This document shows, in pieces, positions 1 to 43,682 of a DNA stretch of 64,000 bases. The notes under the pieces were generated by a model. The model searched no databases and was not told the DNA's origin. It worked only from the letters and a program-made list of their open reading frames with translations. Positions within the stretch are counted from its first letter, which is position 1. Each line of letters starts with the position of its first letter. The position numbers and the translations under genes are program-made. This DNA comes from Chlorokybus atmophyticus (Eukaryota > Plantae > Mesostigma and Chlorokybus algae), in the NCBI GenBank assembly GCA_009103225.1, contig RHPI01002069.1:1222744-1286743 (forward strand). The letters are read 5' to 3'.

Positions 1-184
1 AGTGTAGTTGCAAGCTGTACATCAGCATCGCAATCTGTAGTTGTACACATCACAGTGCAGTGTTGTCACCGTCATCGCATAGCGCGCACAAGCGCTAGTG
101 TGTTGGGTGATAGCAGCACTGGAGATCCCATTGTAGAACACAAACACTCTACCCTTCATCCACTTTCACCATCGCACCAGCTGT

Positions 185-3100
185 ATGAGCAGGCCCACCC
201 CGTTCTCCCCAATAGACGAGGGTGACCTCAGCAGTTGGAGCCCAACCACCAACCTCACCTACGAGCGGACCAGTGACGGGAGCATCGACCGCAGCAGCAG
301 AGGCTCGCGCTCCATCTCCGGCTTCACCCCGCTCCACTCTACTCCTCGTCATCAAGCTTCTCCACTATCATCGGACAGCGACGACAACGAGATGGAGTCT
401 TCCAGTTCAACCACATCCCTGCGCTTCTCCGGATGTGCCGGCACCACCTCGCTGGATGAGTTTATCATCAAGTTCCACTCCAAGATGCGGCAGCAAGCTC
501 TGAAGAACAAAGACTGGTCAGATGAGATCTCTTTCCACATTGCTGCTCAGTATCTTGATTATGAAGCCCACGATGTCTGGAAGTCCGTTGCTGAACTGCA
601 TCGAGTAGACGGCTATGGCGAGCTTGCCAGCACCATAGCACCTGCATCGCTGCACCGTCCAACAGGTGTCGTTCCACCTGCCACTTCAGTTGCAGTAACA
701 GGCTTGTCCATAGCTGCAGCTCTCAAGCAGGCAGAGGAGGAGGAACCGGAGTTGATACTGGTCAACTTGACCCCTGCAGAAGTTGAGTCCAAGGAGGTCA
801 CACGTCGAGTTCGCATCCTTGACCGTTCTGCCGTCATCATTGTGGAACAAAGAGCTGCACAGCAAGCGGCAGCCGCAGAGTGGGGTACTCCTCTACCTCC
901 GGCAACACCTGGCTTTCGTGCAGGAGGCAGTACCTTCACCCTCGGGTCAGTAGCACTGCGCGCACCAGCCATCTCCGTAGGTGCTGCCATCTCTGATTCG
1001 CCACTCAAGGACCTGTACGCTGCCCTGCGCCGCACCTTCCCTCCTCAGACCACCAGCAAGGTTGAGGAGCTGAGACGCTTCCGACGCAAGCCCAATGAGG
1101 ATCCCCTCCGCTTGTACTCCAGACTGGAAGGTCTGCTGAAAGACACTGACTACAAGATTGTCAGTGAGGAGGCTGCTGCAGTGATATACGTCAATGAGTT
1201 GGATGCTGCTCTGAGCGAGTCGACACGCCTGACTCTGAACTACAGCAGGCCCCTTGGCTACACCCTCAAGGAAGCTTTCGAGACTGCACAAGCCATCCAT
1301 AAGCGCGCAGTGTATGAGAAAGCGGTGCTGGACACCAACCGCAGTGCCTCACGGCCTATGGCAGGCACAAGTGCAGAGCCTCTTCGGCGGGACCGCAGCC
1401 AGGAGTCGCAAGGCATCCATTACAAGGATAAACGGTCAGCTCATGCTGCCCTTGTGGCTCCAGTGCTGTGCCACCGGTGTGGTCGACATGGCCACTACCA
1501 AAAGGAGTGCACCGAAGATTACGGCAACCTTGTGTGCGACCACTGCCACAAGACGGGACACTTGGAGACAGTATGCTGGCTCAAGTTCCCTGAGCTGCGG
1601 CCCCCTATTGGCTACAACAACAGCAACAACACTGTTGGTTACCGCGGCCACAACAACTACAACAACAACGGGGGCTACAATAACAGCAACCACGCTGGCG
1701 GCCACAACAACAGCAACAACGCTGGTGGTCGCAACAACGGCAATAACGCTGGTGGCCACAACCCCAACAACAACAACAACGCTGGCGGCCGCAAGGAAGA
1801 AGCTGGCTGTAGAGGGAAAAACCGCCCTCCACAGCACAAAGAACTTGAGGGACGTCCTCGCGCTGGAGCTGCTGCTGTAAAGGCACCAACCAATCCACCG
1901 GCTATCGACCTAGTGGCAGCTCTGATGGCGCGCGTGGCACAGCTGGAGGAAAACAAGGAGCAGGACTATCAAGCCTGCTATGCTGCTAGGTGGGCATTGA
2001 TGGCACCGAAACGGGACAGGGACACTCCCACGCCGTCACGCGTACAACCATCCAGACGGGCGCGCAGGGAAGCTGGCGCGTCGTCAACAGCGGCATCGTC
2101 GGACGCCACAAGTGGTGCTGCCTCGGCAGCCACAACCACCGCTGGGACGACGCCGTCGACGACACCGTCGGCGTCCACACCGACCACAACAATGGGTGTC
2201 AGCACTCTTGGCACCACGCTGGTCCCGGTGATGGAAAGCACCCACGCCGCAGCAACCATGGTCGTTGGGTTCGTAAGTGGTGAATCCACCACTCCTGCCT
2301 CCATCGGAGCGACCACATCAACCGCAACTGCTGCCACCCTCACAGCCGCCACTTCAGTGACGACGACTGCGGCAGGTGCCACCACCATCGCCTCAAGTAG
2401 TGCTGCCCTACCCACCGCACAACTTCTTGAGGGCCGGACGGCACCGCCACCAGCATTGGACGTCACACAGCAAGTGCCACGCGGGCCGCAAGCAGAACGC
2501 GCCTGGGCGTCGATTCTACGCAACGTGGAGCCCACCACTATTGCGTACGGACCAGGGGGGCAACGCACCACGCGCGTGGCACGCGATCATCGCATCTTGC
2601 CCCTACCACCACCAGAATACCACACGCTGCCGGAACCCACACAACAGCAACTGGAGGATGAAATCCTCGCCGGCACTGCACCAGAGATGAGGGATCGTCT
2701 GTTCGGGGTCACCTATCGCCGACCTGCAGTGTTGGAACTAGCCATCCAGTCATGCCTGGCATTACACGCACGGTTGCAGAACGCACCCAGTCAATCGCGA
2801 CAGCATATGCCCGCTCAACAGATCGACTTCGAGCCTTCGCCACTGGACCCACTCGGCCTACAGCGACACAAACTTCAAGACCTCGTGGTCACAATGTCTG
2901 ACATCGCGCTGGGCGCTGATCCCGCTCTCCGGGGGCTCACTCCAGGCAGTCGTCAAGAGCGTTTCTCTGCACTCGAACAGGCCCATCGGTATCGCATGGA
3001 CCAAGCTGCCCAAGTGGACGCGCGCCGACAAGCGTACGAAGCAGCACACGCCGTTATCGTACCAACCGTAGCGCCAGCACATGTTGCCAGCGCCTCCACG

Positions 3101-6100
3101 GCGCCGACCACGGCACACTCCACGGCGATCGCCATCGAGCAGCCGGGACACGCAACTGCAGACCAAGCGAGGGCGTTGGCACAACAATTGAGGGGGGTAA
3201 TCGCCCCGCTGCTGCGTCCTCTGGTCGAAGACATACCTGAGGATCAACGCGATGCAGGGCGAGGGTACCTCACCCCGCAAGGGGACACCACACAACGAGG
3301 AGGAGCTGGTATGGTGGGGGAGCAACAACTCCGTACCGCACTCATCCGGCAAGCAGTGATGTTGCACAGGCCTGAGGGCAACACATTAAGACAGATGATG
3401 GGGATGCAAGAGGGCAGCGCCGCTCGAGCTCGTCTCGTGACATGGCTCGCTGCCAATCACCCTGCTGTCCCACTGTTTGCTTTTGGCAACCGAGCATCAT
3501 GGTTGGGGGCATTCATTCGTTCGCTGCGACAAGCATACGACGAGGCTGCCACCACAGCCCCGGACACACTGGAGGGAGTGCAAGAGGCAATGCTTCGGCT
3601 GCCAGGGGTGGAAGCCGCACGGCAACGGCGGCGCATCGCCATTGCTCATGAGCTACACGCACAGCAGACTAACCTCCAGCGCACCCTACGTGCTCGCGCC
3701 ATGACTGTGCTCGATGTGGGAGTGGTACAAGGAAGGTGGGATGCCTACATGGCAGGGATCTTGCGAGTCCCCACCATTACTCACGGCATGCGGCGACAGC
3801 TACTACGCGCCGTATACCTGCAGCCCATGCCTCAATATCATCATTGGACAGACACGGACACCGAGCCCACGGCCACGTGGGAAGGGACATTGGTCAGAGA
3901 AGCGGCTCATGCTGTGCGATGGACGTACGCCGCGGAGCAAGCTGAACGCGAGGCAGGCCCACAAACACCGGGTCCGCCGGGGTTTCCTCCACAGCCACTG
4001 GGTACGCCCGCGGGCATGATTCCAGCTTTGCAGAGGCGTCATCCACCTGCGCCGCCACCACAACCGGCGCCGGAACCTCCAGCACCAAGGCCCCCCCGTG
4101 TCTACCAACCACCTCGACAAGGTCGGTTCGGCAGAGGGAGAGGGCAAGGAGGGGGCTCTCCGGATCCAGCAGGCAGAGGAGCTCTGGCTGCCATGCGCTC
4201 AGCATCTCCAGCTGAGGCAACTGAGTCGGAGGAACAGACACCTCGTATGAAGAGGTTGCGTATCGACGCTAACGCTGCCATGGTGGCCAACCAAGGCAAG
4301 CACGTTACCATCAACGGTCTGGCACCCAAGCGGGTAACGTTGGACACCGGAGCACAGCCTGTCATCATCGGGCGCTTCCTTGCGCGGTCCCTAGGCATAA
4401 CCAGCTCCGACTTGGTGCCTTGCCCGTACGTGTTGGACACTGCCACAGGTAGCCGGGATAAGGTGATGGGAGTCACCAGGGAGGCCTTTTGCATTCGGTT
4501 GACAGGGCTTGACCTAGCCCACACGACCGAGATCGTCCAGCAATGCGTGGTCACCAATGCCGGCTCCTTCGACTTTCTGCTTGGGCAGGATTTCAACTTC
4601 CCTGTGGGCATGGGCCTCGACTGCTGGACAGAACGAGCGTGGTTTCGGCCACATTGGGATGAGGATGACGGAGAGGTACAGGGCTTCCTGCCTCTTGAGT
4701 TGGTCTCGCGCACGCGCGCCCAACGCAAAATGGCTGCCATGGCCACACGCAGACACGCCCGCACCCGGAAGGCTGTAATGGCCATATACGACGGTGCTCG
4801 GACGCAAGTCGCTGCTGGTGCCACAACCCCGTGTCAAATCGGCGACACCTCTCCCATCCCGTACAACGAGGAGCAGGAGGAGGCCACCGTGGAAGTAGCA
4901 TTACAAGACCCTACTGAACGGCACTGGCGCGCACAGGTGGACGCACACATCTTGCTCAGCCACCCACTGATCACCACGCGCTTCCCCAATTACCGAAGCC
5001 ACGTCAAGGTGCAGGACCACCATATGGTGGCCACCGGAGTGGTGGAATTCCACACCTTTCGCAGGCAACAGGGTATCACAGTGTTGGAACTGTTTGGAGG
5101 CATTGGCAGTGGTCTTGCTATGGTCCTCAACACAGGCGCGAAGGTTACCAAATACTATTACTGCGACCCAGACCCACACGCGCAGACGGCCCTCACGCAC
5201 CACTTACGCCAATTGCACACCAGGTATCCACGTCAACTACCCCTCTCGGCGTTGCAAGGCAGCCTCAGAGCATTGCCACAAGACGTCCGGCTGATCACTG
5301 AAGATCACCTACTGTCCCTCGGCAACGTCGACCTGTTAATAGCTGGATGGGAATGCCAAGGGCACTCCCGGGCAGGCAAGGGACAAGGCCTCGAAAACCC
5401 TCGCTCCAGGTTGTTCTGGGAGCTGATGAGGATCATCCACCTCCTTCAACACCACCAGATCTCCAGACCCCTGGGGTACGTCATCGAAAATGTGCATTCA
5501 GAGGACGACAAGCGTCCGCACGTGGCCTCCGGCTACCAACAAGTTTGCTCCATTTTGGGGCACCCACTCAAGGTGAACGCGGCACGACATGGCTCGCGCG
5601 CACATCGTGTACGTGCCAAATGGACAAACTTGGCCACCGTTGAGGAGCTCATGACCGCCGAATACACGCGCAGCGCTCGGCCGCGCAACCTGCTGGTCGA
5701 CGACATCCTTGACCCCGGCCGCACAGCACAACCTGTACGGCATTATGACCACAACCACTTCTACCAGTGCAATCAGCCTGGTCAGCCCCGTCGCGCCATC
5801 CCCACATTGGTGTCCTACCCGGGCTCCTACGCATTTCGGAACGGCGGTGACGGGATGGTATGTGATGCAACCACCAACACGTTGGAAGAACCCAACGCAC
5901 GCGAACGTGAACGCGCCATGGGCTTCTTCCCCAACAGCATCACAGGTTCATCGCTGACAGACAATCAGCAATGCCAGCTGCTTGGTCGCGCCATGGACAA
6001 GAACAGCATGGTATGGCTGCTGGAGCTGAGCTTCGCGTTGCAGGACCGCTACGTGTCCTTCGAGGATCTCGAACACTTGGCTGGGGGGTGGGCTGATCGC

Positions 6101-7351
6101 GTCGACACCAAGGCAGCTCACACAGCTCTCGAGGTGGTCCACATGGAGGAACAAGCGGCAGTGACAGTGGAGGACATTCCTGTGGTTGCCAATGCAACCT
6201 CCTGGGACCATGCCATTGGCCCGTTGGCCACGGAAGACGCTCGAGAGAAGCTTGAGGCTCTCCTCAACAAATGGAGGAGCCAATTCAGCTTCAATGTAAA
6301 GGAATTGGGTACATGTTCGGTGTACCAGATGGACATCGAGCTAGTGGACACCGAGCCGGTGTTCCGGCGACAATACAGGCTCTCCAAGTTGGAAGAAGAC
6401 TTGGTGGAACAGAGATGTAAGGCGCTGCTGGATGCAGGCCTTATCGAAGAGTCCACATCGGACTTCGCAGCAGCAACCGTCATGCCCCTGAAGAAGGATT
6501 CAGCAGGCAACTGGACAGAGCGACGCATGTGTGGCGACTATCGTCCCCTCAACAACAAGACCAAGCAAGACCGGTACCCCATGCCCACAGCAGAGGGTAT
6601 TTTTGATGATGTGGGAGACTGCACAGTCTTCAGCATCCTGGACATGCGTCAGGGGTACAACCAGATCGCCATCAAGGACGAGGACAAGCACAAGACCTCC
6701 TTCTGGGGCAACCGACAGTTGTACCAATGGAAGGTAATGCCGTTCAGGCTGAAGAATGCCCCCGCCAAGTTTCAACGCGTCATGGACAAAGCCTTGAAGG
6801 GGTTGGACTGCGCGCGGTGCTACATCGATGACATCCTCATCTTCAGCCGCAGCAACAAGGAGCATCTTCAGCACATCGAAGCGGTGCTGGAACGACTCAA
6901 GGGAGTGGGGATGACCGCACACCCCGACAAGTGTACCTTCTTCACCCACAAGGTGCCGTACTTAGGGCACATGATTGTGCCCCATGGTGTGTATGTGCAG
7001 CAGGCAAAAGTAGAGGCTCTGGCAGCTATCCCTGCCCCGACAGACCTCACGCGCCTGCGCGCTTTCTTGGGACTTGCCAACTATTATCGCCGATTCGTGA
7101 AGGACTTCGCGAAGATCGCAAGGCCCCTCAACGAGCTACTGAAAAAGGAGGTGGAGTTCGCGTGGAAGGAGCCGCAACAGCAGGCCTTCGAGGAGCTGAA
7201 GAGCAGACTCACCAGCGCTCCCATCCTTCAACGTCCGGACTACGCCAAGCCTTTCATCCTTCACACCGATTGGAGCAAGCTGGGGATGGGAGCGGTGCTG
7301 GTGCAGCACGATGAGCACAAGAAGGAGCGGGTGGTGGCATACGCCAGCTGA
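185..7351 (+). CDS. Gag-Pol polyprotein, 2388 aa to a premature TGA: Gag, 2x CCHC knuckle, aspartic protease, DNMT3-like methyltransferase, RT, N-terminal part of RNase H
   Basis: CHRCGRHGHYQKEC and CDHCHKTGHLETVC (1469-1576); LDTGA (4340-4354); FGGIG/GWECQ/ENV/AHRVR (5093-5620); RMCGDYR, LDMRQGYNQI, YIDD (6821-6832); LHTDWS in RNase H. Confidence 0.93.
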   Translation: MSRPTPFSPIDEGDLSSWSPTTNLTYERTSDGSIDRSSRGSRSISGFTPLHSTPRHQASPLSSDSDDNEMESSSSTTSLRFSGCAGTTSLDEFIIKFHSKMRQQALKNKDWSDEISFHIAAQYLDYEAHDVWKSVAELHRVDGYGELASTIAPASLHRPTGVVPPATSVAVTGLSIAAALKQAEEEEPELILVNLTPAEVESKEVTRRVRILDRSAVIIVEQRAAQQAAAAEWGTPLPPATPGFRAGGSTFTLGSVALRAPAISVGAAISDSPLKDLYAALRRTFPPQTTSKVEELRRFRRKPNEDPLRLYSRLEGLLKDTDYKIVSEEAAAVIYVNELDAALSESTRLTLNYSRPLGYTLKEAFETAQAIHKRAVYEKAVLDTNRSASRPMAGTSAEPLRRDRSQESQGIHYKDKRSAHAALVAPVLCHRCGRHGHYQKECTEDYGNLVCDHCHKTGHLETVCWLKFPELRPPIGYNNSNNTVGYRGHNNYNNNGGYNNSNHAGGHNNSNNAGGRNNGNNAGGHNPNNNNNAGGRKEEAGCRGKNRPPQHKELEGRPRAGAAAVKAPTNPPAIDLVAALMARVAQLEENKEQDYQACYAARWALMAPKRDRDTPTPSRVQPSRRARREAGASSTAASSDATSGAASAATTTAGTTPSTTPSASTPTTTMGVSTLGTTLVPVMESTHAAATMVVGFVSGESTTPASIGATTSTATAATLTAATSVTTTAAGATTIASSSAALPTAQLLEGRTAPPPALDVTQQVPRGPQAERAWASILRNVEPTTIAYGPGGQRTTRVARDHRILPLPPPEYHTLPEPTQQQLEDEILAGTAPEMRDRLFGVTYRRPAVLELAIQSCLALHARLQNAPSQSRQHMPAQQIDFEPSPLDPLGLQRHKLQDLVVTMSDIALGADPALRGLTPGSRQERFSALEQAHRYRMDQAAQVDARRQAYEAAHAVIVPTVAPAHVASASTAPTTAHSTAIAIEQPGHATADQARALAQQLRGVIAPLLRPLVEDIPEDQRDAGRGYLTPQGDTTQRGGAGMVGEQQLRTALIRQAVMLHRPEGNTLRQMMGMQEGSAARARLVTWLAANHPAVPLFAFGNRASWLGAFIRSLRQAYDEAATTAPDTLEGVQEAMLRLPGVEAARQRRRIAIAHELHAQQTNLQRTLRARAMTVLDVGVVQGRWDAYMAGILRVPTITHGMRRQLLRAVYLQPMPQYHHWTDTDTEPTATWEGTLVREAAHAVRWTYAAEQAEREAGPQTPGPPGFPPQPLGTPAGMIPALQRRHPPAPPPQPAPEPPAPRPPRVYQPPRQGRFGRGRGQGGGSPDPAGRGALAAMRSASPAEATESEEQTPRMKRLRIDANAAMVANQGKHVTINGLAPKRVTLDTGAQPVIIGRFLARSLGITSSDLVPCPYVLDTATGSRDKVMGVTREAFCIRLTGLDLAHTTEIVQQCVVTNAGSFDFLLGQDFNFPVGMGLDCWTERAWFRPHWDEDDGEVQGFLPLELVSRTRAQRKMAAMATRRHARTRKAVMAIYDGARTQVAAGATTPCQIGDTSPIPYNEEQEEATVEVALQDPTERHWRAQVDAHILLSHPLITTRFPNYRSHVKVQDHHMVATGVVEFHTFRRQQGITVLELFGGIGSGLAMVLNTGAKVTKYYYCDPDPHAQTALTHHLRQLHTRYPRQLPLSALQGSLRALPQDVRLITEDHLLSLGNVDLLIAGWECQGHSRAGKGQGLENPRSRLFWELMRIIHLLQHHQISRPLGYVIENVHSEDDKRPHVASGYQQVCSILGHPLKVNAARHGSRAHRVRAKWTNLATVEELMTAEYTRSARPRNLLVDDILDPGRTAQPVRHYDHNHFYQCNQPGQPRRAIPTLVSYPGSYAFRNGGDGMVCDATTNTLEEPNARERERAMGFFPNSITGSSLTDNQQCQLLGRAMDKNSMVWLLELSFALQDRYVSFEDLEHLAGGWADRVDTKAAHTALEVVHMEEQAAVTVEDIPVVANATSWDHAIGPLATEDAREKLEALLNKWRSQFSFNVKELGTCSVYQMDIELVDTEPVFRRQYRLSKLEEDLVEQRCKALLDAGLIEESTSDFAAATVMPLKKDSAGNWTERRMCGDYRPLNNKTKQDRYPMPTAEGIFDDVGDCTVFSILDMRQGYNQIAIKDEDKHKTSFWGNRQLYQWKVMPFRLKNAPAKFQRVMDKALKGLDCARCYIDDILIFSRSNKEHLQHIEAVLERLKGVGMTAHPDKCTFFTHKVPYLGHMIVPHGVYVQQAKVEALAAIPAPTDLTRLRAFLGLANYYRRFVKDFAKIARPLNELLKKEVEFAWKEPQQQAFEELKSRLTSAPILQRPDYAKPFILHTDWSKLGMGAVLVQHDEHKKERVVAYAS
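1610..1790 (+). repeat. AAC-rich coding repeat giving an Asn/Gly low-complexity tract in Gag
   Basis: Repeated (AAC)n blocks with GCTGGCGGCCAC spacers encoding GYNNSNN..AGGHNNSNNAGGRNNGNNAGGHNPNNNNNAGG. Confidence 0.85.
5072..6030 (+). other. C5-cytosine DNA methyltransferase domain (DNMT3/DRM-like catalytic fold) in frame inside Pol
   Basis: Motif I LELFGGIGSG; motif IV DLLIAGWECQGHS (Cys codon 5354-5356); motif VI YVIENV (Glu 5486-5488); motif VIII NAARHGSRAHRVRAKWTNL, compare DNMT3A AHRARYFWGNL; motifs IX-X ERERAMGF...QLLGRAMD, compare DNMT3A EMERVFGF...RLLGRSW. Confidence 0.92.
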
Positions 7352-9335
7352 AGCAACAACAGCGCCGAGGCCAACTACAGCAGCTATGAAGGGGAATGCC
7401 TCGCTGCAGTGTGGGCCATCTCCTTCTTCCGACCTTTTCTCTTTGGTCGACAGTTCCAACTGATCACCGATCATCAGCCCCTCAAGTGGCTGATGACAAA
7501 CCAACATCTGACAGGGAAACTTGCTCGATGGGCCCTGCTGTTACAGGAATACGACTTCGAGATTGACCACCGCGCTGGCCTCACCAACCAAGACGCCGAT
7601 GGCCTCAGCCGCAACCCCCACCTCAGCACCAACGACGCAACTGGAGCGCGGCATGAGCTCATCCCTGCAGCAACAGCTCCCACCATGGCAGCCATGTTTG
7701 CTGCTGCCGCGTTGCGCTCAGGGCGCAAGACCAACACCACAACCTCAGCAGTGGTAGAGGAGATTCCTGCCCTTGAGTCTACCGACCCTGCGGCAATCAC
7801 ACCCTTGGGAGACGCCCACGCGGCCGACATTGACGTCGATAACACAGAGCTGGCGTCCATTGACACCAGGCAGGACATATGGCACGACAAGCCATCACTC
7901 TCCTTTCTTCAACGTGGCCATCTCCCCTCTGGCATGAGCGCTCGAGAGAAGGACCGAGTCAACCAACGCACCCGTCACTATCGATGGGCAGGTGACAAGC
8001 TGTATCGCCGCTTCCACGACGAAGACAAGGAAGTGCCGACACCAGTCACACGCGAGGACATCATCACTTCCCTCCACACTGAGCTTGGACACTTTGGTGT
8101 CAAGTGCACAGTCAGTCTAGTGAGAGCACAATATTGGTGGTATGGATTAACAAAACAGGTGCAAAGGTTCGTCAGCCAATGCCAGCAGTGTGACATGGTG
8201 CGCGCCAGCCTCAACACGCGTAGCGCCACCTTGCACCCACTCCCCATCTCCGGTCTCTTACTGATGGGGACTCGACATCTTGGGGGACTTGGCACCCTCA
8301 GCACGTGGCAACCATTACATCCTGGTCATGATTGAGCACTTCTCCAAATGGGTGGAGCTGGTGCCATTACCCGACAAGAGCAGCAGGGGGGTGTCTCAAG
8401 CCTTCCTCTCTCACGTTCTCAGCCGCTTTGGCAGCTGCGCCGAGGTCATCACCGACCAAGGTACTGAGTTCAGAGGGGAATTCGACACCCTCTTGGACAA
8501 ATGTTACATCGACCACCGCCGTACCTCGCGTGATCACCCTTAAGCCGACGGCCTCGCCGAGCGGACAGTACAGACCATCAAGAAGGCACTCCGCAAATAC
8601 GTGTTGAAGTACAAGAAGGACACTTGGGATGACCACCTCCCCTGGGTGGCCCTTGGATATCGGTTGTCAAAACAGGCGGCTCTGCGGGAGTACAGCCCGT
8701 ACTACCTGCTGTTTGGGCGACCACCATTGCTCCCCTTCCGTGCGCAACAGGAGGTGGATCGCGTCGTGAACAACCTCGACGACCCTGACTGGATGCACCA
8801 CGACATCACCACGCGCGCCGCACTTTTCGAGCGCACCGTCCCCATGGCCTTCAACAATCTGCGCATCGCGCAGCATCGCGACACGCTGCGCTACGAGCGC
8901 GTACGCAGCGGCTTTTACAAGGAGCGCCAACGGCGATTCCAAGCGGGGGACTTTGCCTATCGCATGGCAGCCACCAAAGACACGCTTGACACCTCCGTAG
9001 GCCGCACCGTCTACAAGGTACTCAAAGTGTACCCCACAGGGGTGCTGGATCTCCTGAGTCAAAACGGAGAAAGGTTGAAGGACAACATGGTGAACTGTGC
9101 GCCATGTCACCTCCCTTACGTAGCCGGCTTCGGGCGTATCCAGCACCCTCGTCCTACGCGCAGCACACGCTGTGAACACTGCGGCAGCGCCGGCGACGAC
9201 GCACTCATGATGCTCTGCGATGGCTGCAACAAAGGCCTGCATTGCTACTGCCTGGAGCCACCTTTGGACACGATACCTATGGAAGAATATTGGTGCGACG
9301 ACTGCCGTACCAACGGCCCTCCTCACTTGCGCTAG
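7352..9335 (+). pseudogene. Disrupted continuation of Pol: RNase H C-terminal part, integrase (HHCC, DDE core) and C-terminal PHD finger
   Basis: Read-through after TGA 7349-7351 gives SNNSAEANYSSYEGECLAAVWA, then TDHQPLKWL and ADGLSRNP. HTELGH..CQQC follows, then a frameshift near 8258 and TGA 8262-8264, then WGLDILG..IEHFSKWVEL, ITDQGTEF, TAA 8541-8543, ADGLAERTVQ. C4HC3 PHD at 9171-9305. Confidence 0.9.
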
Positions 9336-9365: not shown

Positions 9366-9390
9366 AGAGCCCAGGGGGGGTGGCTTGTTG
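9366..9390 (+). other. Polypurine tract and probable start (TGTTG) of the 3' LTR
   Basis: G-rich tract about 30 nt after the Pol stop, immediately followed by TG. The LTR end could not be fixed because no 5' LTR copy is visible in the window. Confidence 0.6.
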
Positions 9391-11615
9391 ACTCTGTATG
9401 CTACGGCATAGCATGTTCTTAGGGAAAACACCGGCTCCATCTGCCCGTACTATCCAGCAGCAGCACCCCAGCTGCACGAAGCATTTGTCACCATGGGGGT
9501 GGAGGTCATCTTTTGTTCTTGCTACGCGTCACCCAGGTGGCGCAGCAGCATGTCCAGCACAGTATGGCTGTCCATGCAGCTGCCCGAGACAGCGTGACCC
9601 TCGACTCCCCTCGACCCGACAACTCTGCCGAATTACCTCCACAGCATCCACCACCTGTCCACTAACCACATGTCCTGAAGTTGTCCATGTGAAGAAGCGC
9701 ATGGGTTCCCCTCGCCACTCGAAGCACGAGCGCGATTCGCACACGCACTGCACGCGACGAAAAAACTCGGGTTCCTTGCACAGCACTTTGCTAAGGCGGC
9801 AGCCAAACACGTCGACATTGTGTGTGGTGTGATGCCAGCAAGCAGCACTAAAACCGTGGCACACTGTCTGCACTCGCTGGCATTTGGTCAAGTGTGCTCG
9901 CATTCGCTACCTACGGCCATTGGCACATATGTATGCATTGCATTGTGGGCACACCAAGCATGGTCTCCTAGATGAGGGGGATTCAAATGATGCCGCCGAC
10001 ATCATGCAAAATAGGAATCGGCACGGCTGCCCACAAACTGAGCGAGACTTTAGGGTATATGCATCAATGTAGGGTTGCCAGCTTACGAGCCCTAAATGGG
10101 TCACACTTCAAGTGAAGCACGACTGTACCATTGACGCTATTGCAGTACCATGCATGGTACTACATCAACATGAATGGTACTCCATCTGTTAATGGTACTA
10201 CAGTACCAGGATGCTCGCATACTACCACAATCGTAGAGTAATACTGTGTTGTCATTCCATGAAATCCAGAGCGCTGTCCGAGTTTGTTGCTGTCAACCAC
10301 GCTCTGAACCAGCGAGGTATGTAAGCCATGCACTGACTCATGCGCCGGGCAGTCATCATACACATGTACAGCCAAAGCTTCTGACAACAGCAGACCTCGG
10401 GTGCACCATGCACCATGCTGCAACTATATATGTACCTACATGGTTCACATGTATTCAACACAAAACTGCAATATATGCACAATTGTCATCAAAGCGGGGG
10501 CCAAATCACCGTTGACACATTGGCGTCTTGCAGTGGGCGTGGCGACCAAAACGGGTGAGGTTGCTTGCACATGGGACACGCTTGTAGCTCCTTTGATTTA
10601 TTTGCCATATGCTTCTGTTGGTATATAATGCAGACATGGCACATCGCATGCTTGCAACAGGGCGTCTCCTCATCCGCTGGGGGTGGGTGGGCTCTTCAAT
10701 GCGACAATTCAGCACACATGGTGCACGCAGGTGTGCAAGCTGCCTCTGCCACCAAACTCTGTTATCGCGTTGCAGGCGCAGCGACTCCCATCTTAAAGGC
10801 GCAGCATAACGCTCCACTGCCTGCTCAATCACCTGACGCCCACGCCGCCATACACCACCTGCTGCTCTTGGTGGTCTTGTCCAGCATGCATTCCTTCAGG
10901 CCCTCGACATGGCCGTCGTCACTCGTGTGATCGCCCACATCGCCATCTTCTTCAAGCTTTCACACAATTAGCTTGACGTGCCGTATGACATACAGCCACT
11001 GCCAGCAAAAGCATGCCAAGTACAGCTCGAATGGTTTTACTTGCCACCCAGTATGTTTGCTTAGGTAGTGGCACACATCTCGACCCGCATCAGTCAACAT
11101 CAACAGATACATCTATTGCAGCAGGTTGAAGTTTTGCTCCGCGGATAGCTCTTGCACATTGCCGGGTTGCAGCGGCAGCAACAACACCATCATATCGAGG
11201 ACGGCGAGGGGCAACAATGTACTACGGATGGCCATATCCTGTTTGGGTTCCAACCACGGCCAATCCCCAGAGGTCTGTTTAGACTGCACTCCGCGTTTGC
11301 TCTTACTTATTGCATACTTTCGTCACCCACCTCGAGGCATGCGGCATGCGGTGATGCAGCGCATCTTGAGGGTATTGTAGGGCGATCAATTTCTTTGCAC
11401 TATGAGTCAGCCCCTCAAAGCGTCTGCGCGTCGGTGCTTTGAGCTTAGGCAGCTCGTTCCGCACCGGCTGTCTCTCTGGACAATGCTGAGCAGCAACTTG
11501 ACGCTGTAAACCGCCTGTGCCTACTTTGGACACACAGTCAGCCCCAGTGAGGCTTCAAGGCGCAATGCTTCTTCTAACCTTGTAACGATGCCTCACCTTT
11601 CCTTTTTTTATCATG

Positions 11616-12742
11616 TCAGCGTCCCTTGTTCCAACAACTTTCAACGTACACATCCTGGCAGGCGCTCTCCGTGGCACTGTTTCTTAGAGGAGGTAAGGCG
11701 TTATCTTCTTGCTCCACAGCATTGCGCTTGTTGGTTGCCTCCCGTCCCTCCACGACCTCATGTTGCTTAATGAGGTCGAGCATGAAGCCTTTGTCTTTCA
11801 GCGCAGCTTTCATGACACCTCGATCAATCTCTTTACCAACAGTACAGGCTGGGATCAATGTGGCAAGCTTAGAGGGAGAGGGCGAGCTACCGCTGTATCT
11901 TGATGGAGATGCCTCCGGATAATCAGAGTGCGGTGGCAAGTGAGTCTCCGCAGCAGGCAGGGAGGGTGCTGAGTTATAATTGCGAGCATGTGGCTGTGGT
12001 TGAGGGGAGGTAGGATGTGCAGGACAATTGGCTACTTGTTGCCAAGCACACGAAGGTGAGGCCTGAGGAGTTGGCGCAGCACCTTGGGTCGCATCCGGTG
12101 GTAGCGGGGAATTGGCAACGCCATTCCGCCACTGTCCGATCAAGTTTGTTACATCCGGTGGCACTTCATGCATAGGCCACGACCATTGTTCGGTGCTTGC
12201 AGGCTTGAGGAGCCAAAAGTGTGCTGGCTCATCAGGAGCAGTGTTGCCCACCACCAGGACTGAGTTGGGGGCTTCTTCATTTCCAACCCAAACTGCGCTG
12301 CCGGGCCGTGACACCCACTCCCCATGCTCGCGCCGAACGGTCACGCAGCCAATCAACAAGCCTAGCTTGTTGGCAAACATGGTCATCTGCAGGTGCTGCA
12401 AGTATACATCTTTTTCCGCACGATCTGTAGCACCTTTGCCATGGCTATGTCAATGTTGCAATTGACATCAGCCAACATGGTCGCAGGCAGTTTGTCGTAA
12501 TATTGCGCCATCTCTCCCGCGGCACCAGTGGCTTTGCAGAAGTCTAAGGTTCTGCTCGCCATGCCTGCATCAACAGTCTTGTCGGTGACTTTGCGGAGAG
12601 TGTCCCCCCTGCCGTCGTCGTCCATGGTGTCCAGCATGGCCCAAAATCTGCTCGAGCTGAAGCACTTGTGATCATCCAAGACACTTTGCGCTATGGATGG
12701 CTTGGCGCGAAACACACAATGATAGAAGCAATTACCATTCAT
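11616..12742 (-). pseudogene. Possible frameshifted OTU-like cysteine protease ORF inside an unclassified repeat region
   Basis: NAPMNGNCFYHCV resembles the OTU Cys loop (DGNCLFRA). After a frame change near 12440-12400, YLQHLQMTMFANKLGLLIGCV and PAHFWLL resemble the OTU helix and His motif. Confidence 0.35.
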
Positions 12743-14157
12743 TGGCGCATTGAAGTGGTCTCATCAAGCGAGGTGGCCACCTAGCATAACTGATGGCCGT
12801 ATGCGGGTTGCGGCCAGCTCCTCTGTTGACTCGCTGGCATGTGGTGACGCCTGCTGCATGCGCATACAGCACTCTAATGGTGTGTTCAACTGTCGACGGC
12901 AAGAGTCACAGTGACTGATGAAGTACCTGAGCTTGGGGCAGACTGCCGGCTTCAACTTGCAGCGGGTGGGGTAAGGTAGGTGCAGACGCCACATCGGTTG
13001 TTGCATTGTGATGTGGTCTCGCCGGTTGCGGCAAGAAGGATTGTTGCCCCGCAATCACCGGTGCTGCTTGTGGAGGAGACGGCAGTGCATGAAAGACTGG
13101 TGCCGCGGAAGGTGGATGCGCTTTAGCTGCGAGGGGAGCAGGTGCGGCAGGTGAAACCACTTGTGCATGCAGCAAGGGGGGCTGTATATAGGACCCAGGA
13201 TAAGATGGCTTACAATGTTGCAAAGGATGTATATAAGCTTATGCAATGCCTGACGCATTCTTACCAAGGCACAAGCATAAAAGACATCGACTTACCTCAG
13301 TGGCTCGTGGGCTGCATGGAGCAGGGGAAGCCATGAGGGCTGACAAGGTGGTATTGGGTGCACTTTCCCCGCCACCTCAATCGCAGACTCGTCACGGAGC
13401 TCGTGAGCCATGGGCACAGGATGCGCCACTGCCCCAATAGACATGTTGGGATTCAACATGCCAACATGCATGTTAAACTGATGCCGCATTGCGACCGCGC
13501 CCATCAGCAAGTGGGATTGAAGGACCCGATGATGATGGGATTGAAACCAGACTTGCATAGAAGCTCGGATAGGACCTAGTGCACTGTGGTGCTGTCAACC
13601 AATCACATGTGGGTTAGCTGCATGCTTGCGACACTGCAATTGCAATAATCAACTGCGTCACACCGTCATCAGTTTATTGCTTCGAACTGTCACCTGCGGC
13701 ATTGCTGGTTGATGCACGAATGATTGCATGGACTGCGTCATTGCTGGTTGATGCACTACTGGTGCAATGCCGGACGAATGGCCACGCGCTCATGTGCTCA
13801 AACCCAGCCTACTTCGCTCGGCACGCGCGCGCGACTTCCCACGCTCACGCACATCCTAGCATGCAAAGGTAGGCATGCATTGGAGGTGCATGCAGGCAAC
13901 ATGCACAGCGAGATTGGCAACAACATACCGCCGCTCAGCTCTGGCTATCCGCTCTGGCTTCCGCAATGTTGGCTTGACTGTGGGGTGGGTATGGGTAAAT
14001 AGTGAAGCCTGCAGCTACGCTTCATTTATCATATGGACTGCGCCAAAAACAAATTGCTCTTGCAAGGATATGCATGTGACTGTTGAGCGTACCTCGGCAT
14101 TCTTTTGTGCTTGTTCCCGCAGTCGCAATTGGTCCCGCATGGTTCTGACAAGGGGGT

Positions 14158-14408
14158 CTAAGGACTGCAGCTCCTGATCCACTCCTTGCTGCAGAAAGCG
14201 AGCCACCAAGCAGCTTTTTGTGTGAAGATGGTCCTTGATGGCTTGCCTGCTGGTTTGTCCAGTGTAAGTGATGCATGTTGGACTAAGGACTGCAGCTCCT
14301 AATCCACTCCTTGTTGCACAAAGCGAGCCACTAAGCAGCTCTTTGTGTGAGGATGGTCCTTGATGGCTTGCCTGCTGGTTTGTCCAGTGTAAGTGATGCA
14401 TGTTGGAC
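14158..14408. repeat. Tandem duplication, 125-bp period, 2 copies
   Basis: CTAAGGACTGCAGCTCCT starts at 14158 and 14283, and the copies align through GTGATGCATGTTGGAC with scattered substitutions. Confidence 0.9.
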
Positions 14409-15479
14409 ATCCCCATTGCTGACGCTTGCCATGATCCATGATGTGGCGCCCGGTATTAGCTGGCTTCGCTGCTTGAACTCTTACGACCACAACTTCTCGC
14501 CAAAAGTGCCACGCCGCCGCCGCCGCCTCATAGTCCTCCGCCTCCTAGTCAAACTCATGTCTACTATGCCTGACATTCGAGCCGTCATCGATCTGATGCC
14601 CCTGCGTGCCATCATCCGGCCATTAATGAAGCTGTTTGGGTGAGTGCACGCTAACTCCCATTGGGGCTGGTCGAGCAATGCCTCTGTCGTACCATGGTAC
14701 GACAGAGTCATTGTACGCCAATGGCTGGGGTTGGACGAGAGATGCCTCTGTCGTACCATTAATGTTACGCCCAAGCCATTGTTACCCTTGGTTGTACAAA
14801 GCATGGATGTTACGAATGCATAAGTCGTACCATTAACCATGGGAGAGAAGGACGCACTACAAGTGCGACTCTGGTGCGGGACACTAGGCGCTCAAAACCG
14901 CCTCATTTTTGTTTTAGCGCCTCGTACATTGGGGCGGGCCACCTGGCGGCTGCAGCGTTGGATGCGGCAGCGCCATCATCAGCTAAGCAAGCGGCACCCG
15001 ACTATCAGTTAGAGAGATGCCTCCTGGTCCATCTGCAGGTGCACCTTATCGTGGAGGCGCCCCAAGTCCACATTGCCCCTAGTGTTCAACCAAGCAACCG
15101 TTGCCAACCAGCAGCAGCCACTCTTTGCCAACCAATTGCAGCAAGACCCCGCGCAAACGCCCAGCCCATAAAAACAACTCAATCTGACACCGCAGTCGCA
15201 AGGGCAAGCTAAAATGCATGCGTTCTTTATGCACTGTGCACGTTGCTTCTTGCTCAACTTCAAACTTTGATGCTTGCTTCTTTCATGACTGGCACAGTGA
15301 CTCACTGCATGCGTTCTCGATACACTGTGCACGCTGTTCTTTTTGCTCAACTGTGAGGGTTGCATCTTCCATGGCTGGCAGCATGACTCACGTGGTTGTG
15401 CTTGCAGAGGGTCGATTGGAACCCCCAACCCAAACACATTTGGCCGTGACATACCAACCGCAGCCGTCAGCAACCCTTC

Positions 15480-16700
15480 CTTAAGCAAGTGGAAGATGGG
15501 CAACAAGGTAAGCACTGTGTGACACTGTGTGTAATGGATTGTTCTTATGTGGACAGCAATTGCGAGATGCCGTCATTCAAATCATAAACGGCCACTGGGA
15601 GAGAGCCACGTTTATCCCAAGAAGGACACTATTGGTAACGTCATGTGTCAGGTGCTGTGAATGCTTCATGACCTCACTGCACCGTGACAATGACCAACCT
15701 GCCTATGACAGGTAGTTGGCTTCGACCATGACAACGAGGCTGATGCAGCCAAGTTCTATGAGGTGTACTGGACGCCCAAGGAGTGCCCCTTCCACTGGAG
15801 TGTCGTTTTGAAGAAAGTTTCGCAGGTCCGTTCTGAGAACGTCACCAAGATCAAGCATGTCCTTGGGAAGGAGTACAAGTGGACACTGTTTAACATCAAC
15901 AAGCGCAAACGAGTTGGGTCCCTCACCACCATGTCTGCTATGCAACATTGCCTTTACTCAGCCTCCATACACACATGCGCATCTTGCCTATTGTAACCGA
16001 TTCAATCCAGCACATCGACGCTCTAATGGACCCCGAGACCCCAAAAGCGCAATGCGCTCCAATATAGTCACAGGCACTATTCTAGCCTAGTGCACGCTCA
16101 ACTTGAACTATGTATACTATAACTAATGCCTTGTTGGTATGACTCTCGCAGACAAGTCATGGCGGAAATTTGAGGTGACCGACAATGCAGACCCGGAGCG
16201 GAGGAGATACATCCATGAATGGGGCAATCCCATCATCTGGCAAATGATCGTGCAATGCTGGTCTTACGCCGTCACTACACCTAGTCGCCGGCAGCTGACG
16301 GTCAACCACGTCACATACCGATTGCTTACGGTGAGCACTCTGAACTCAAACACAAGCAATTTGGGAATGTTGTAGCCCCAAATTACAGGCTTACAGACGC
16401 GCTGCAGTGAATAGTGGCTTTCAATGCCACTAAGACATGCCTGTAAACTACGCAGGTGGAGCGCATCCTAAAGGGCAAGGATGGAGACCCTCTCCTAGCT
16501 GCCAGCATCGACACACATAAAGAGTGCCTCGGCAAAATCAGCACCATGCTCATAGCAATGAAGCTTAAGATGAAGCAACGGTACGCAGCGATTCAGCCAG
16601 TCACTTTCATAAAACGCCATTGCATATTGTGTCAAATACCTGAAAGATCCCAATCGGTGCCGGCCGCAAGAGACATCAATTCGTCACCCGTTCGCTGAGG
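15480..16700 (+). CDS. Multi-exon ORF fragments of unknown product, possibly a transposon gene or pseudogene
   Basis: Successive GT-AG bounded open segments encode RHSNHKRPLGESHVYPKKDTIGNVMCQ, FYEVYWTPKECPFHWSVVLKK.., KSWRKFEVTDNADPERRRYIHEWGNPIIWQ and ERILKGKDGDPLLAASIDTHKECLGK. No family was recognised. Confidence 0.35.
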
Positions 16701-17267
16701 CCGAAGCGGCATCTGATTGGCTGGCGCAACCGTTTGAGGAGGAGGAAGAGCAAGCTCCGGCGTCTCTACAGGCCCAGCGTGGTGCTTTGTTTCATGATGA
16801 CGAGCAAGGCGATGACAGAGAGGAGCCGCAGCGCAGTTGGTAGTCCAATTAGCTGGTAGTGTACACTGCAAGGCTCTTCTGACTTAGTGTTGTGCATCTT
16901 AACCAAGCTCAATCGTCGTTATGCTCATGCATGTCAAAACTTGCATCCCTACGGTATACAACAGCACTGCAAGCATTCGAGTCACATAATCGAACTACAA
17001 GCCTTGGCAAGTGACTGAGAGACACTGTACACATTTCAGGTACCTGTACACAGCACATGCACATAACAATGCTAGCAGTCAGTGACAGTCGCGTGTAGTC
17101 ATGCTATGCAAATACATATATACATATATATATAACGATAATTAGGCATTAGTCACCTTTAGTTGCTTGAGGAATGCCTTATTTTGTTGACAACTTCCTA
17201 GTTGGTGCTTGTGAATTAGGCTTGTGAATTAGGCTCAGTCGCCTGCGCTGGACTGGTGTGTAACCAG

Positions 17268-17520
17268 CAGGTGCCTGTTATATAGGATGAGTCACCTATA
17301 TAAAACTAATGTGTAATTTGCAGGTGCCTGTTAATTAGGTATAGTCACATGTTAAGGCCTGTGCAACTTACAAGTGCCCGTTATTTGGTTATAGTCACGT
17401 GTTAAGGCCCGATAAGTAACGAACAGGTGCATGTTAATTAAGCGTAGTCATCTGTTAAGGCCTGATAAGTAACTAACAGGTGCCTGTTAAGTAGGCATAT
17501 TCAACTGTTAAAGACTGCAT
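17268..17520. repeat. Degenerate tandem array, about 53-bp unit, 5 copies
   Basis: CAGGTGCCTGTTA-like heads at 17268, 17321, 17371, 17424 and 17477 (spacings 53, 50, 53, 53), mostly with a GTTAAGGCC-like motif downstream. Confidence 0.85.
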
Positions 17521-17869
17521 TGTAACGGAAAGGGCCTGATAGTAACGGAAGTTATACTCATGTCCCTGTGTCGAGATTACAGGGGACTGAGCTACGACAG
17601 TCAAGATTAGTGTCTTCAGGTGCACGGCCGTTGCCAATATTTGGTCGGTCGACAGGAGGAAACATTTTGCGACGACTGGCGCACGCTTGTGCACAGTAAA
17701 GAAAAGTTGTAAGCGTGTAACAATGTTTGTGAAAGGGTCGCATAGCTTGGAGCACAAGCAGCCCGACCTTGCGCTACTTACTGCACTGCAAATGAAACGT
17801 GCGTTGCGCAAAAACACACCGGCTTTTTGGTACACTTGACGTCGTCGGACGACTTTGTGCCGGGCAATA

Positions 17870-20064
17870 CAGAAGGTGTCGCAGACATCATTGATAAGTG
17901 CTAAGATGTGTTCCTTGATGAGTTGCTAGGCTTACCTACTGATTGCGGTGTCGGACACACAATACTTCTCATTCCTAATAGTGAGTCCCTTTCGGCCTAT
18001 ATAGGCTAAGCCCCCAAGAGAGGGAGGAAATGAACTTAAATCAAGCAGTTACTGAAAAAGGGATTTATTAAACCGAGTTCTTCACCCTTTGACACGCACA
18101 GTGGTGATGAATCTTAAACTATTGGTGTATTCTCAATACAGCAAAAGTTGTCACAAAGGCAAGCTCGCTGGAATAAATTTCTATTCCGGTTTACCCTTAA
18201 GTGGGTATACCGGCCAGGCAGAATCAATGTTGCTGATCCTCTAAATCGCCGATCGTCATTGTTAGCAATTATGGATGCGCAATTGCTTGTAACGCGCGGT
18301 ATGTTGCCGCCTGATAATAAGTTTGTTCAAACTGTTGTGCAAGGGTATGCTTTAGACCCATGGCTCTCATCAGAGGACAATGTGCAAAAGCTTAATAAAC
18401 GAGACAACATGTATTATATGGGCACCGGTTTTGTCAAACCAAACCATGCTGAGTTGTGTGTGAATGCATAGCTGATGTACACAATCCATCATACGTTGGG
18501 CACTTTGGCAGTCACAACACTGTTAAGGCAGCACAGCAGTTGTATTGGTGGCCATTGTAGCCTGTTGACGTAAAGCGGTATATAGACACATGTGACAAAT
18601 GTTACTATGACAAGCCGTTACGTGAAAAACCCGAAGGGTTGCTGTGACCATTGCCTGTTGCTGATGGCAAATTGGAAAGTGTGAGTATGGACTTGATTAC
18701 TAAGCTCCCAAAGACAGCATTATGTCACACCGCGGTTGCAGTTTTTTTTGGCCATTTAGCAAAAGTGGTTCACATTGTCCCTTGTCGCATGGAAATAGGC
18801 TCCTTGCATGGTGCACCCGAGGCTCCCGCGAGTTGGCGATGGATTTTGCCGCACCTGTGTGTTCAAGTTGCAAGGCTTGCCTCGCAACCTTGTGTCTGAT
18901 TGCGATCCACGATCTGTGGCTCGGTTCTGGAAGTCGCTATGCAGCTCCTTACATAACATGAGCCCAGCTTACCATCCGCAGATGGATGGTCAGACAGATT
19001 GCGCCAGTTAAGTAACTATCGGCATTATATGAGTCTGAAGCAGAGTGATTGCGATGTTCACCCCTCGTTGGCTAAGTTTGCAATCAATAGTACATGGTAA
19101 GGGAGTGTGCAGGAAACTCCGTTTATCTTAGATTACGGAGTGCATACAGTGAGTCCTGCGAACATCAAGTTGCTTGCTACCGTAACTCGCGTACCTGCAG
19201 CGCGCAAAAGGGCTTTGGCCATGCAAGATAGGTTAGCGTTGGCAAAGGACTATCTGCGCGCAGCGAGAACAGATAAAAGCAGAACAGAACAGAACAGATA
19301 AAAGCACAAGCTGCGCATCGTAGAGAGGCCAACTACGATGTGGGCTGTTCGGCGCTTTTAAATACCAAAAACCTATCCATTATAAAAGTGCGTATCCGCA
19401 AGTTTTTCCCTCGCTTGATATGCCCTTTTTAAGTGATTGAACGTCGTTGGGTCGGCACGCACGCGTATTGATTGAACTTGCAAAAGTCATTACGCATTCA
19501 TAATGTGTTTCATGTGAGTGTACTGAAACCGTACCGTTTCTGATGGTCAGGTTCAACCTCCTCCACCCCCTATTGTAGTGGATGGCGACGATACTTTTGA
19601 GTATGAGGTGGAAGCAATCCTAAGTCATCGTAAGCCACGACGCAAACGCGCGCCGTCTTACTTGGTGAAATGGAAAGGGTATAGTGTTGAGCACAACACG
19701 TGGGAGCCCGAAATGAGTCTTACAAACTGCCAAGAGACTCTTCGGGGGTACTGTAGCGCTGTGCTTACACGCGGACGGTTGAAGGCAGCTGGCTGACATC
19801 TCTACCGCTTCGGCCCTGATTCTCTCACTGCTTTAGTTGTCAGTGCTCATGGTGGGGCTTTGCTAACCCTTCAATGAGGACATTGAAACCTAAGTGGGGG
19901 AAATGTAAGGAAGTGCTACCTCTATAGAGGTTTCCCGCCCTTATTCATCATTCAATAAGGATCCCAACAAGTAGAACGGCAAATTAAGCCGTATAGGCCG
20001 TTCACCTAATGTTAAGACCCTAATGTGGTGTTACTTATCTGTACCACTGATATTCAGCTGATAT
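17870..20064 (+). mobile_element. Decayed chromovirus (Ty3/Gypsy) copy A: RT N-terminal fragment, internal deletion, integrase, chromodomain, PPT, partial 3' LTR
   Basis: RPIYRLSP..GFIKPSSSPF; QQKLSQRQARW..YRPGRINVADPL; SMDLITKLPKT; YHPQMDGQT; chromodomain EYEVEAILSHR..YLVKWKGYSVEHNTWEP (19578-19796); CCTAAGTGGGGGAAA then TGTAAGG at 19904. Many stops and frameshifts. Confidence 0.88.
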
Positions 20065-20115
20065 TGTAACGGGAAGGTACATTATATAACCACAAATCGA
20101 CCATAAAAAGCACCA
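20065..20115 (+). repeat. 5' two-thirds of the 79-bp TRIM LTR fused to chromovirus copy B
   Basis: TGTAACGGGAAGGTACATTATATAACCACAAATCGACCATAAAAAGCACCA matches the LTRs at 24502, 26399 and 26855. Confidence 0.9.
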
Positions 20116-23100: not shown

Positions 23101-24129
23101 AGGCGCGCAAGTTGTTGCCCCAATGGTTAGGACCGTTCTCTACTATTCATTTAATTGGTACGCATGCTTACCGACTGCAATTGCCCCCGAGCATGCATGT
23201 GCACAACGTGTTTTATGTGAACTTGTTGAACCCTACCGCTCTGACGGTAGAACACAGCCTCCACCACTTCAGGTGGACAGCGAGCTCGAATATGAGGTAT
23301 AAGCTATCTTGAACCATAAGCTAAACAAGCGTGGACACGCGACCGCTATTTAGTCAAATGGAAAGGGTATGGCTCGGAGCATAACAGTTGGGAGCCCGAC
23401 AGGCATCTCACACACTGCCGTGAGTTGCTTCGAGCTTACTGGGATGTACATCCCACCCCGTGAACTGTGAGCTTGGTTATGACAGACTGGCAGTGCAGTT
23501 TCATTACCACCCTATCATTTCCTGCTATCTTACTGGTGTCATTGACTCAAGACCAAGCCTGATCAACTTGAGTTCAACGAGTACGTTGAAAACCTAAGTG
23601 AGGGGAATGTAACGGGGGCAATAATACTAGGGGTATTATTGCTACCTAAATGACATATGCTGTGTAGATAAGTACATGTAAATTTATACCTCTTTCTACG
23701 GTTCCTCGCTTATCAAAGCTTATGATACTTTATTATAGCTTTGGTAAGTCCCAATGGTGTAGAACCGCATATTCAAGCCGATTTAGGGTCGCACATCATA
23801 TATGCGATCACTATAGCCAGATATCGCGATATGTACCTTATCATTGAATACCTTATCGTTGGATACTTCAGCTCATATTGGCTTACGCTAGATTTCAAAT
23901 GGCTACCCTATCTATAGGGGTGATATCTAATTATAATTTTGATATCAGAACACACATACATGTGATATATCCTTGATATATAAGCTCTCATCAATTGATG
24001 AGATTATTCAGTTCTCTGCCATTTGCAGCGTCATGCCACCGGCGGCGTGACCGGCTTGTCATCGGCGGTGTGGGTATTGGGGTAGAGGATTGAAGGGACG
24101 GCGTTCTCATAGGCGCTGTGGTTGTGACA
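20116..24129 (+). mobile_element. Decayed chromovirus copy B: protease, RT, RNase H, integrase, chromodomain, PPT and a 522-bp LTR (23608-24129)
   Basis: ALIDIGANHIFV; [22 protein letters not shown]; YLDD; QQNLSRQQARR; chromodomain YLVKWKGYGSEHNSWEP (about 23290-23460); CCTAAGTGAGGGGAA then TGTAACGGG at 23608; TGTGACA at 24123-24129 followed by a PBS-like TGGTTATGGGAGC. Confidence 0.88.
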
Positions 24130-24580
24130 TTGGTTATGGGAGCCTGAGACCCGGGATCGATTCCTACCTGGCACATGAACTCCGTGGTCGTTGTTTCTGA
24201 ATCCAATGACGCTGTAAATGGTCACTGCATAAGTGCCATCATTGATGGGTCGCGGCTTGTCTGATGGCAGTTGCGCCGGAGTTCAGTCGGCGCGGCAGAT
24301 TGCCTGACCTGCCTGTCGCGATTGGGCCGGCAGCGGCGCGCTATGCGCGCGTTGACCTGTATGGGCCTAACTTAGCCGGTCCTTGCCGTTGAGGCCGGTG
24401 GCCGACCCTAGCAAACCCCTGGGATGACTCCCCAGCTGATAGGAGCCAGTTGCCGAAGACGTCAGCGTTCATAAGTGGGGAGGAATGTCACATCCCGTTA
24501 CAATAACGGGAAGGTACATTATATGACCACAAATCAACCATAAAAGCACCAACTATTTTATGGTCGAGTGAGCTGTGACA
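24130..24580 (+). mobile_element. Second TRIM copy: internal domain, PPT and 3' LTR (24502-24580); its 5' LTR position is occupied by the long chromovirus LTR
   Basis: Collinear with 26478-26933 (PBS, GAGACCCGGG(A/T)TCGATTCC, GC-rich hairpins, TAAGTGGGG PPT, LTR ending GCTGTGACA). Confidence 0.85.
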
Positions 24581-43668: not shown

Positions 43669-43682
43669 TTGTCGCTGGACGA

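Follow-up and report, generated by a model that had tools for sequence, protein, structure and literature searches.

A DNMT3-type cytosine methyltransferase domain in the Pol region of a decayed Ty3/Gypsy element of Chlorokybus atmophyticus and of its relatives in green algae

The closest described counterpart of the locus analysed here is KnitGypsy-Dnmt3 of the streptophyte alga Klebsormidium nitens, in which, according to the accessible text of PMC5890265, an unpermuted Dnmt3-related domain with its catalytic residues kept lies within a Gypsy Pol ORF, shows Ka/Ks under 0.2 and is accompanied by DIRS-like A-coding-B-A-B repeats; its acquisition was placed 'in the K. nitens lineage'. The same text describes SymbioDIRS-Dnmt3, dinoflagellate DIRS elements with a tyrosine recombinase that likewise hold a Dnmt3 domain in Pol, in two coexisting domain orders and with congruent reverse transcriptase (RT) and DNMT trees. 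Two SymbioDIRS-Dnmt3 domains produced de novo CG methylation in yeast, an activity demonstrated for these elements only, and the Klebsormidium Gypsy-borne domain gave no methylation in yeast, a result that its authors call inconclusive (PMC5890265). The EpiLTRs of Euglena and Cymbomonas are Ty3/Gypsy elements that pair a DNMT with a chromatin reader; as far as the accessible text of the preprint goes, their DNMT is sister to DNMT4, they also carry a Dam methylase and a chromodomain, and they are set apart from streptophyte Gypsy-DNMT3 (bioRxiv 10.64898/2026.05.21.726589). Gypsy-7a_cRei of Chlamydomonas has a Gag-Pol with a PHD finger but no DNMT among the domains listed in the accessible text of PMC9940879. 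Gypsy-DNMT3 elements have been placed in streptophytes (accessible parts of bioRxiv 10.64898/2026.05.21.726589 and PMC12344493), and the accessible part of a review of 12 algal genomes lists Cyanidioschyzon and Klebsormidium as the only ones with DNMT3/DRM homologues (PMC9861306). In the searchable literature we came across no Gypsy-DNMT3 from Chlorokybus or from any chlorophyte; such sequences may be present in the supplementary trees that accompany PMC5890265 and PMC12344493.

We analysed 64 kb of Chlorokybus DNA (hereafter the window, meaning this whole stretch) and confirmed that it contains a Ty3/Gypsy retrotransposon with an in-frame DNMT3-type domain between protease and RT. A single stop-free plus-strand frame at 137-7351 (2404 aa, first ATG at 185) encodes, in the order given by Pfam, a zinc knuckle, an aspartyl protease, a PF00145 domain, RT and the first part of RNase H, bearing out the in-frame position between protease and RT proposed in the initial annotation. 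The Gag part has two CCHC-type zinc-knuckle motifs at 1457-1621, recognized by sequence (PF00098 match weak, E 0.006, below cut-off), and is followed at about 2000-4290 by some 760 Ala/Thr/Pro-rich residues of low complexity, which have no Pfam match and separate the knuckles from the protease. The protease (LDTGA, aa 1390-1486) lies at 4304-4594 (PF13650, E 1.6e-7), the methyltransferase domain at 5072-6030, RT (YIDD, aa 2128-2280) at 6317-7006 (PF00078, E 9e-29) and RNase H at 7157-7591, with PF17917/PF17919 matches on either side of a premature TGA that ends the frame. Further downstream on the same strand are an integrase with zinc-binding, core and C-terminal parts (8048-9158; PF17921, PF00665), a PHD finger at the integrase C-terminus (9171-9305; PF00628, E 4e-9; frame end 9335) and, 3' of the stop codon, a polypurine-tract-like G-run (9374-9380) of a kind that also follows the PHD finger in most relatives. 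This succession of Gag and then protease, RT, RNase H and DDE integrase (Pfam) is that of Ty3/Gypsy. With a Dnmt3 domain inside a Gypsy Pol ORF, the element is of the kind described from charophytes by de Mendoza et al. (2018), as had been suggested. It differs from KnitGypsy-Dnmt3 in host lineage, and the likeness between the two is drawn from the description in the accessible text of PMC5890265; no K. nitens protein was identified among the family matches described below. We considered and rejected membership in the EpiLTRs: Pfam finds neither a Dam nor a chromodomain in the element's three frames, which contain a PHD finger instead.

The methyltransferase call is sound and lies well past chance. 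PF00145 matches the Gag-Pol frame with 37 bits against a cut-off of 22, and C5-methyltransferase motifs I (FGGIG, 5093), IV (GWEC, 5345; catalytic Cys codon 5354-5356), VI (ENV, 5486), VIII (RVR, 5606) and IX-X (GRAMD, 5984) are all present, where they had first been noticed and in unpermuted order, with Glu-Cys instead of Pro-Cys in motif IV. The 29 best solved relatives by sequence are all DNMT3A/B/C (E 4e-9). A profile built from 18 relatives places DNMT3 first among solved chains (E 6e-26), ahead of DRM-type enzymes (2.5e-14 to 1e-12), M.HhaI (8e-9) and DNMT2 (5e-5), aligns motif IX-X to DNMT3A as well and finds no DNMT1/CMT chain among its 56 matches; the predicted fold (pLDDT 74) best matches DNMT3A (Foldseek E 1e-13, TM about 0.6). 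These sequence, profile and fold rankings place the domain nearer DNMT3 than any of DRM, DNMT1/CMT, DNMT2 or the bacterial enzymes. The original description of the domain as DNMT3/DRM-like rather than DNMT1/CMT-like thus holds for DNMT3 and fails for DRM, an identity that we rejected because the motifs run from I to X rather than in the circularly permuted order (VI-X before I-V), and DRM2 aligns over the N-terminal half only.

The window copy is dead as an element, as it can produce neither an integrase nor a whole RNase H. Its DNMT domain is open throughout, without stops or frameshifts, as first described, and all breaks lie downstream: the RNase H stop at 7349-7351, an integrase frameshift near 8257 and an integrase stop at 8541-8543. 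The last two lesions look private to this copy, since related contigs (runs X1-X3, from two studies) differ from the window at both places. Many related, slightly different contigs exist, and their depth is no copy number. The expectation that the methyltransferase would be made together with RT and integrase therefore fails for this copy, with its broken RNase H and integrase, and survives only for intact relatives. Among 49 well-conserved columns, the domain itself departs from the family consensus in 4 (residues 1686, 1814, 1935 and 1945, none of them catalytic; family median 2), and its own catalytic activity is uncertain for that reason.

The end structure seen in the family does not bear out the initial label of LTR retrotransposon. 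In the one relative in which both ends are seen (L062, with the DNMT between protease and RT), they form split repeats in the order A-coding-B-A-B (A about 340 bp, B 113 bp) with a 4-bp target duplication and no plain LTR pair, an arrangement shared with KnitGypsy-Dnmt3 as its accessible text has it (PMC5890265). The left end of the window copy falls outside the sequence; within the 64 kb we found no terminal repeat pair and no occurrence of the family's B-A junction motif CGACA-GC-TGTCA. After the G-run, the first CGACA occurs at 9617-9621 and no A-B tail follows; relatives L016 and L022 likewise end with a single B, and 13 of 14 family junctions end in CGACA. In addition, one X1 contig has a loose end at 9632 with five letters in register with 9622-9626. 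From this short motif and single contig we infer that the copy ends at 9621, with a probable lone 3' repeat B at 9385-9621 (plus strand; ending CCCGACA), is missing its A-B tail and lies within a different repeat; the reading would predict TGTCA at the left end and an ACTC target duplication for this copy. A weak joint between 1227 and 10328 (30 letters, one contig) points against insertion into a separate repeat.

The sequence next to the element, from 9622 to about 17600, is a separate multi-copy repeat into which the DNMT element seems to have inserted. We had entertained this stretch as a giant repeat of the element itself and dropped the idea: it shows no similarity to the relatives, and the end motif at 9617-9621 and the loose end at 9632 fit insertion. 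None of 41 frames taken from 9392-16883 gave a Pfam match above cut-off; a minus-strand OTU-protease-like motif, GNCFYHC, lies at about 12700-12740 (an Atlas lead with score 0.86 and OTU in 11% of members), and tandem units of 50-53 bp occupy 17252-17504. Beyond them lie decayed plus-strand Gypsy remnants (about 17900-24000 and 24120-26941) with RT, RNase H, integrase and two chromodomain-like ends (19659 and 23347); a pair of repeats (24120-24588 and 26468-26941, 79%) has the look of LTRs belonging to these remnants, and one of the two lies within a second DNMT element. That element (24560-29821, minus strand) is heavily decayed and has the same protease-DNMT-RT layout; its DNMT remnant at about 27128-28086 is 42% identical to the first and has several stops and a frameshift. 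A direct repeat of 285 bp in an AT-rich stretch (43387-43671 and 48494-48778, near 100% identical, 5107 bp apart) possibly represents the LTRs of a young element. Host genes recognized with Pfam are a weak SGT1/ecdysoneless-like exon (37993-38691), a rhodanese-domain calcium-sensing-receptor-like gene (39851-41962) and an ALG6/ALG8 glycosyltransferase (57183-58325); an exon (39854-40387) matches a jgi/Chlat1 protein at 100% identity along 178 residues, a label that stands for Chlorokybus atmophyticus, a streptophyte alga of an early-diverging lineage.

Three protein searches and two cluster look-ups yielded a family of 234 proteins plus the window, near-duplicates included. The DNMT lies between protease and RT (layout A) in 38 of these, window included, and between RNase H and integrase (layout B) in 114; 72 are too short to classify and 11 have no DNMT domain. 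In all 152 classifiable proteins the DNMT is therefore inside Pol, beside either RT or integrase. At 50% identity the family amounts to 561 clusters with E under 1e-30, of which the best 150 were examined. Organism labels, present for 12 of 30 clusters, name Closterium in seven (six of layout A, one unclassified) and chlorophytes in five (Hariotina, three Haematococcus and Scenedesmus), all of layout B, so that layout follows host lineage without exception in a sample of four genera plus the window. By its reach into Closterium and three chlorophyte genera and by its second layout, the family extends beyond KnitGypsy-Dnmt3 as depicted in the accessible text of PMC5890265. Viral contigs yielded only distant phage-type methylases (9 loci). 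One protein in the set, P0032, is a stand-alone methylase of 319 aa; its motifs are DNMT3-like, its identity to the window domain is 28%, and it is possibly prokaryotic or viral.

We built RT-RNase H and DNMT trees by quick search, without bootstrap, from 68 distinct proteins that have both domains (11 of layout A, 57 of layout B). The two layouts fall on opposite sides of one branch in both trees (SH-aLRT 99 for RT-RNase H and 96 for DNMT), and the DNMT tree recovers 21 of the 26 RT splits that have strong support, against 3 strong conflicts; given this broad agreement, the DNMT has long been a fellow traveller of the element. Rooted with three distant methylases (10 near-identical rows omitted), the DNMT tree has its root inside the protease-DNMT-RT group, with long branches flagged, whereas midpoint rooting puts it inside the RNase H-DNMT-integrase group, and the two rootings disagree. 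Catalytic residues are nearly invariant across 197 distinct domains, which were gathered with a DNMT query or profile and hence by a selection that favours conserved motifs: the Cys is kept in 195, the Glu of ENV in 196 and the RxR arginines in 195 and 191. The residue before the catalytic Cys is Glu in 103 of the 197 and Pro in 81, so the Glu-Cys of the window is a family trait rather than a quirk of this copy. Ka/Ks in six close pairs, none of which includes the window, is 0.03-0.12 for DNMT and 0.00-0.11 for RT, values indicative of purifying selection on the DNMT in these relatives; five of the pairs, drawn from six related loci, are not independent of one another, and the sixth is near saturation. 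The Ks filter passed 19 pairs in all; the other 13, distant and saturated, were left out (DNMT Ka/Ks of 0.18-0.37 for 8 of them, with no computable value for 5).

The same data dispose of an explanation that treats the DNMT as a neutral passenger, a nested insertion or an assembly chimera. The window copy by itself might suggest as much, being decayed and set in a cluster of repeats, but an identical in-frame layout recurs in 37 other proteins, in the second element of the window and at many loci, Ka/Ks is low, the RT and DNMT trees match, and related contigs from two studies span the domain. We regard this explanation as refuted and give it hardly any remaining probability.

Further features tie the two layouts together. 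A PHD finger follows the integrase in 73 of the 81 proteins long enough to show one, in both layouts; the text of PMC5890265, in its accessible form, has 0 occurrences of PHD, and a figure there might show one. The solved PHD fingers closest to that of the window are those of MLL3, UHRF1/2, ATXR5, BAZ2A/B and KDM5, and on the strength of this resemblance our analysis suggests that the finger may steer insertion to silent chromatin. For KDM5B, PHD1 binds unmethylated H3K4 according to the accessible text of PMC4225485. The B-A junction GACA-NN-TGTC, nearly always CGACA-GC-TGTCA, occurs downstream of the integrase in 14 of 36 loci (4 of layout A and 10 of layout B), against about 1.5 by chance and with many contigs ending before the junction region; since it is found in loci of both kinds, the end structure is common to both layouts. 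Junctions lie at 8656 in L001, 8235 in L005, 14606 in L006, 10347 in L062, 7083 in L023, 9188 in L024, 12109 in L030 and 9309 in L040, with six more elsewhere. The palindrome in these 3' repeats resembles the joined ends of linear cDNA and is conserved across otherwise unrelated repeats; it may inform on the replication mode of split-repeat Gypsy elements.

What the domain does is a matter of graded likelihood. The window holds the DNMT3-type domain of a decayed Ty3/Gypsy element, and we favour, with moderate confidence, the reading that in intact members this domain methylates the element's own cDNA or its insertion site, making new copies resemble host chromatin. The domain would be translated within Gag-Pol and enter the particle, where the protease would free it or leave it on RT (layout A) or on integrase (layout B); it would then use SAM on double-stranded cDNA, probably at CG as in the Symbiodinium Dnmt3 elements, and the PHD finger on the integrase would read unmodified H3 tails and direct insertion into silent chromatin. 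A role during the replication cycle fits because the DNMT is retained under selection and always lies in Pol next to RT or integrase; the low Ka/Ks also parallels that of KnitGypsy-Dnmt3. Against such a role, the element shows no footprint of self-methylation, with a CpG observed/expected ratio of 0.80 compared with 0.74-0.77 in flanking host DNA. Nor do C-to-T/G-to-A differences between the window copy and related contigs favour CG: 7 CG, 5 CHG and 11 CHH of 23 (expected 5.1, 4.9 and 13.0; p 0.6), counts that come from the 40 differences with the best support among more than 1000. Across 19 related loci the CpG ratio varies from 0.28 to 0.79, which is uninformative without host baselines. Also counting against the proposed role are the failure of the Klebsormidium domain to methylate in yeast (PMC5890265), the Glu that replaces the canonical Pro before the Cys in about half of the family and the consideration that self-methylation could silence the element's own copy as well.

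Several of these observations would also suit a domain retained for the RNA genome or an RNA:DNA hybrid, or mainly as a DNA- or chromatin-binding or targeting module: the lack of a CpG footprint in the window, the Pro-to-Glu change beside the catalytic Cys in more than half of the domains and the inactivity of the Klebsormidium domain on yeast DNA (accessible text of PMC5890265). Near invariance of the Cys, the Glu and both Arg, residues dispensable for a pure binding module, and nearest solved relatives that are DNA enzymes, with DNMT2 ranking far lower, make us consider this alternative unlikely. A further reading has the DNMT active as self-restraint, seeding methylation that silences new copies and so spares the host, an idea put forward by de Mendoza et al., in whose accessible text KnitGypsy copies bear CHG and CHH methylation (PMC5890265). 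Among the C-to-T/G-to-A differences that set the neighbouring repeats of the window (11000-30900) apart from related contigs, CHG is over-represented (13 of 30, expected 5.7, p 0.002, among the 40 best-supported differences), which hints at CHG methylation of repeats in Chlorokybus and fits host repeats that look methylated; this excess lies outside the element, however, fits host enzymes and has no tie to the element's DNMT, and we hold self-restraint to be distinctly improbable.

In animals, DNMT3 joins a methylase to a reader of unmodified H3 through its ADD domain. A tentative history, to which we give somewhat less than even weight, is that a single capture of a DNMT3 by one PHD-bearing split-repeat Gypsy lineage preceded the chlorophyte/streptophyte split, and that the lineage has kept the enzyme active since and shifted it within Pol, where it sits beside RT in streptophytes and beside integrase in chlorophytes. 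The element would then carry a reader of unmodified H3 alongside a de novo methylase, and its enzyme would be the sole DNMT3 of chlorophyceans that are reported to be without a host copy. Counts of DNMT3 in algal proteomes call for caution in any case, as they can include retrotransposon-derived copies. Taken alone, the window contributes a further, decayed example of an element type already in print; what is added to knowledge is the breadth of the family and a second, chlorophyte layout that shares the PHD finger and the split-repeat ends. The relatives supply natural, unbroken domains from culturable algae for the question of the activity and substrate of Gypsy-borne DNMT3, and the spread of the family across green algae turns a single-species curiosity into a system that extends across the green lineage.
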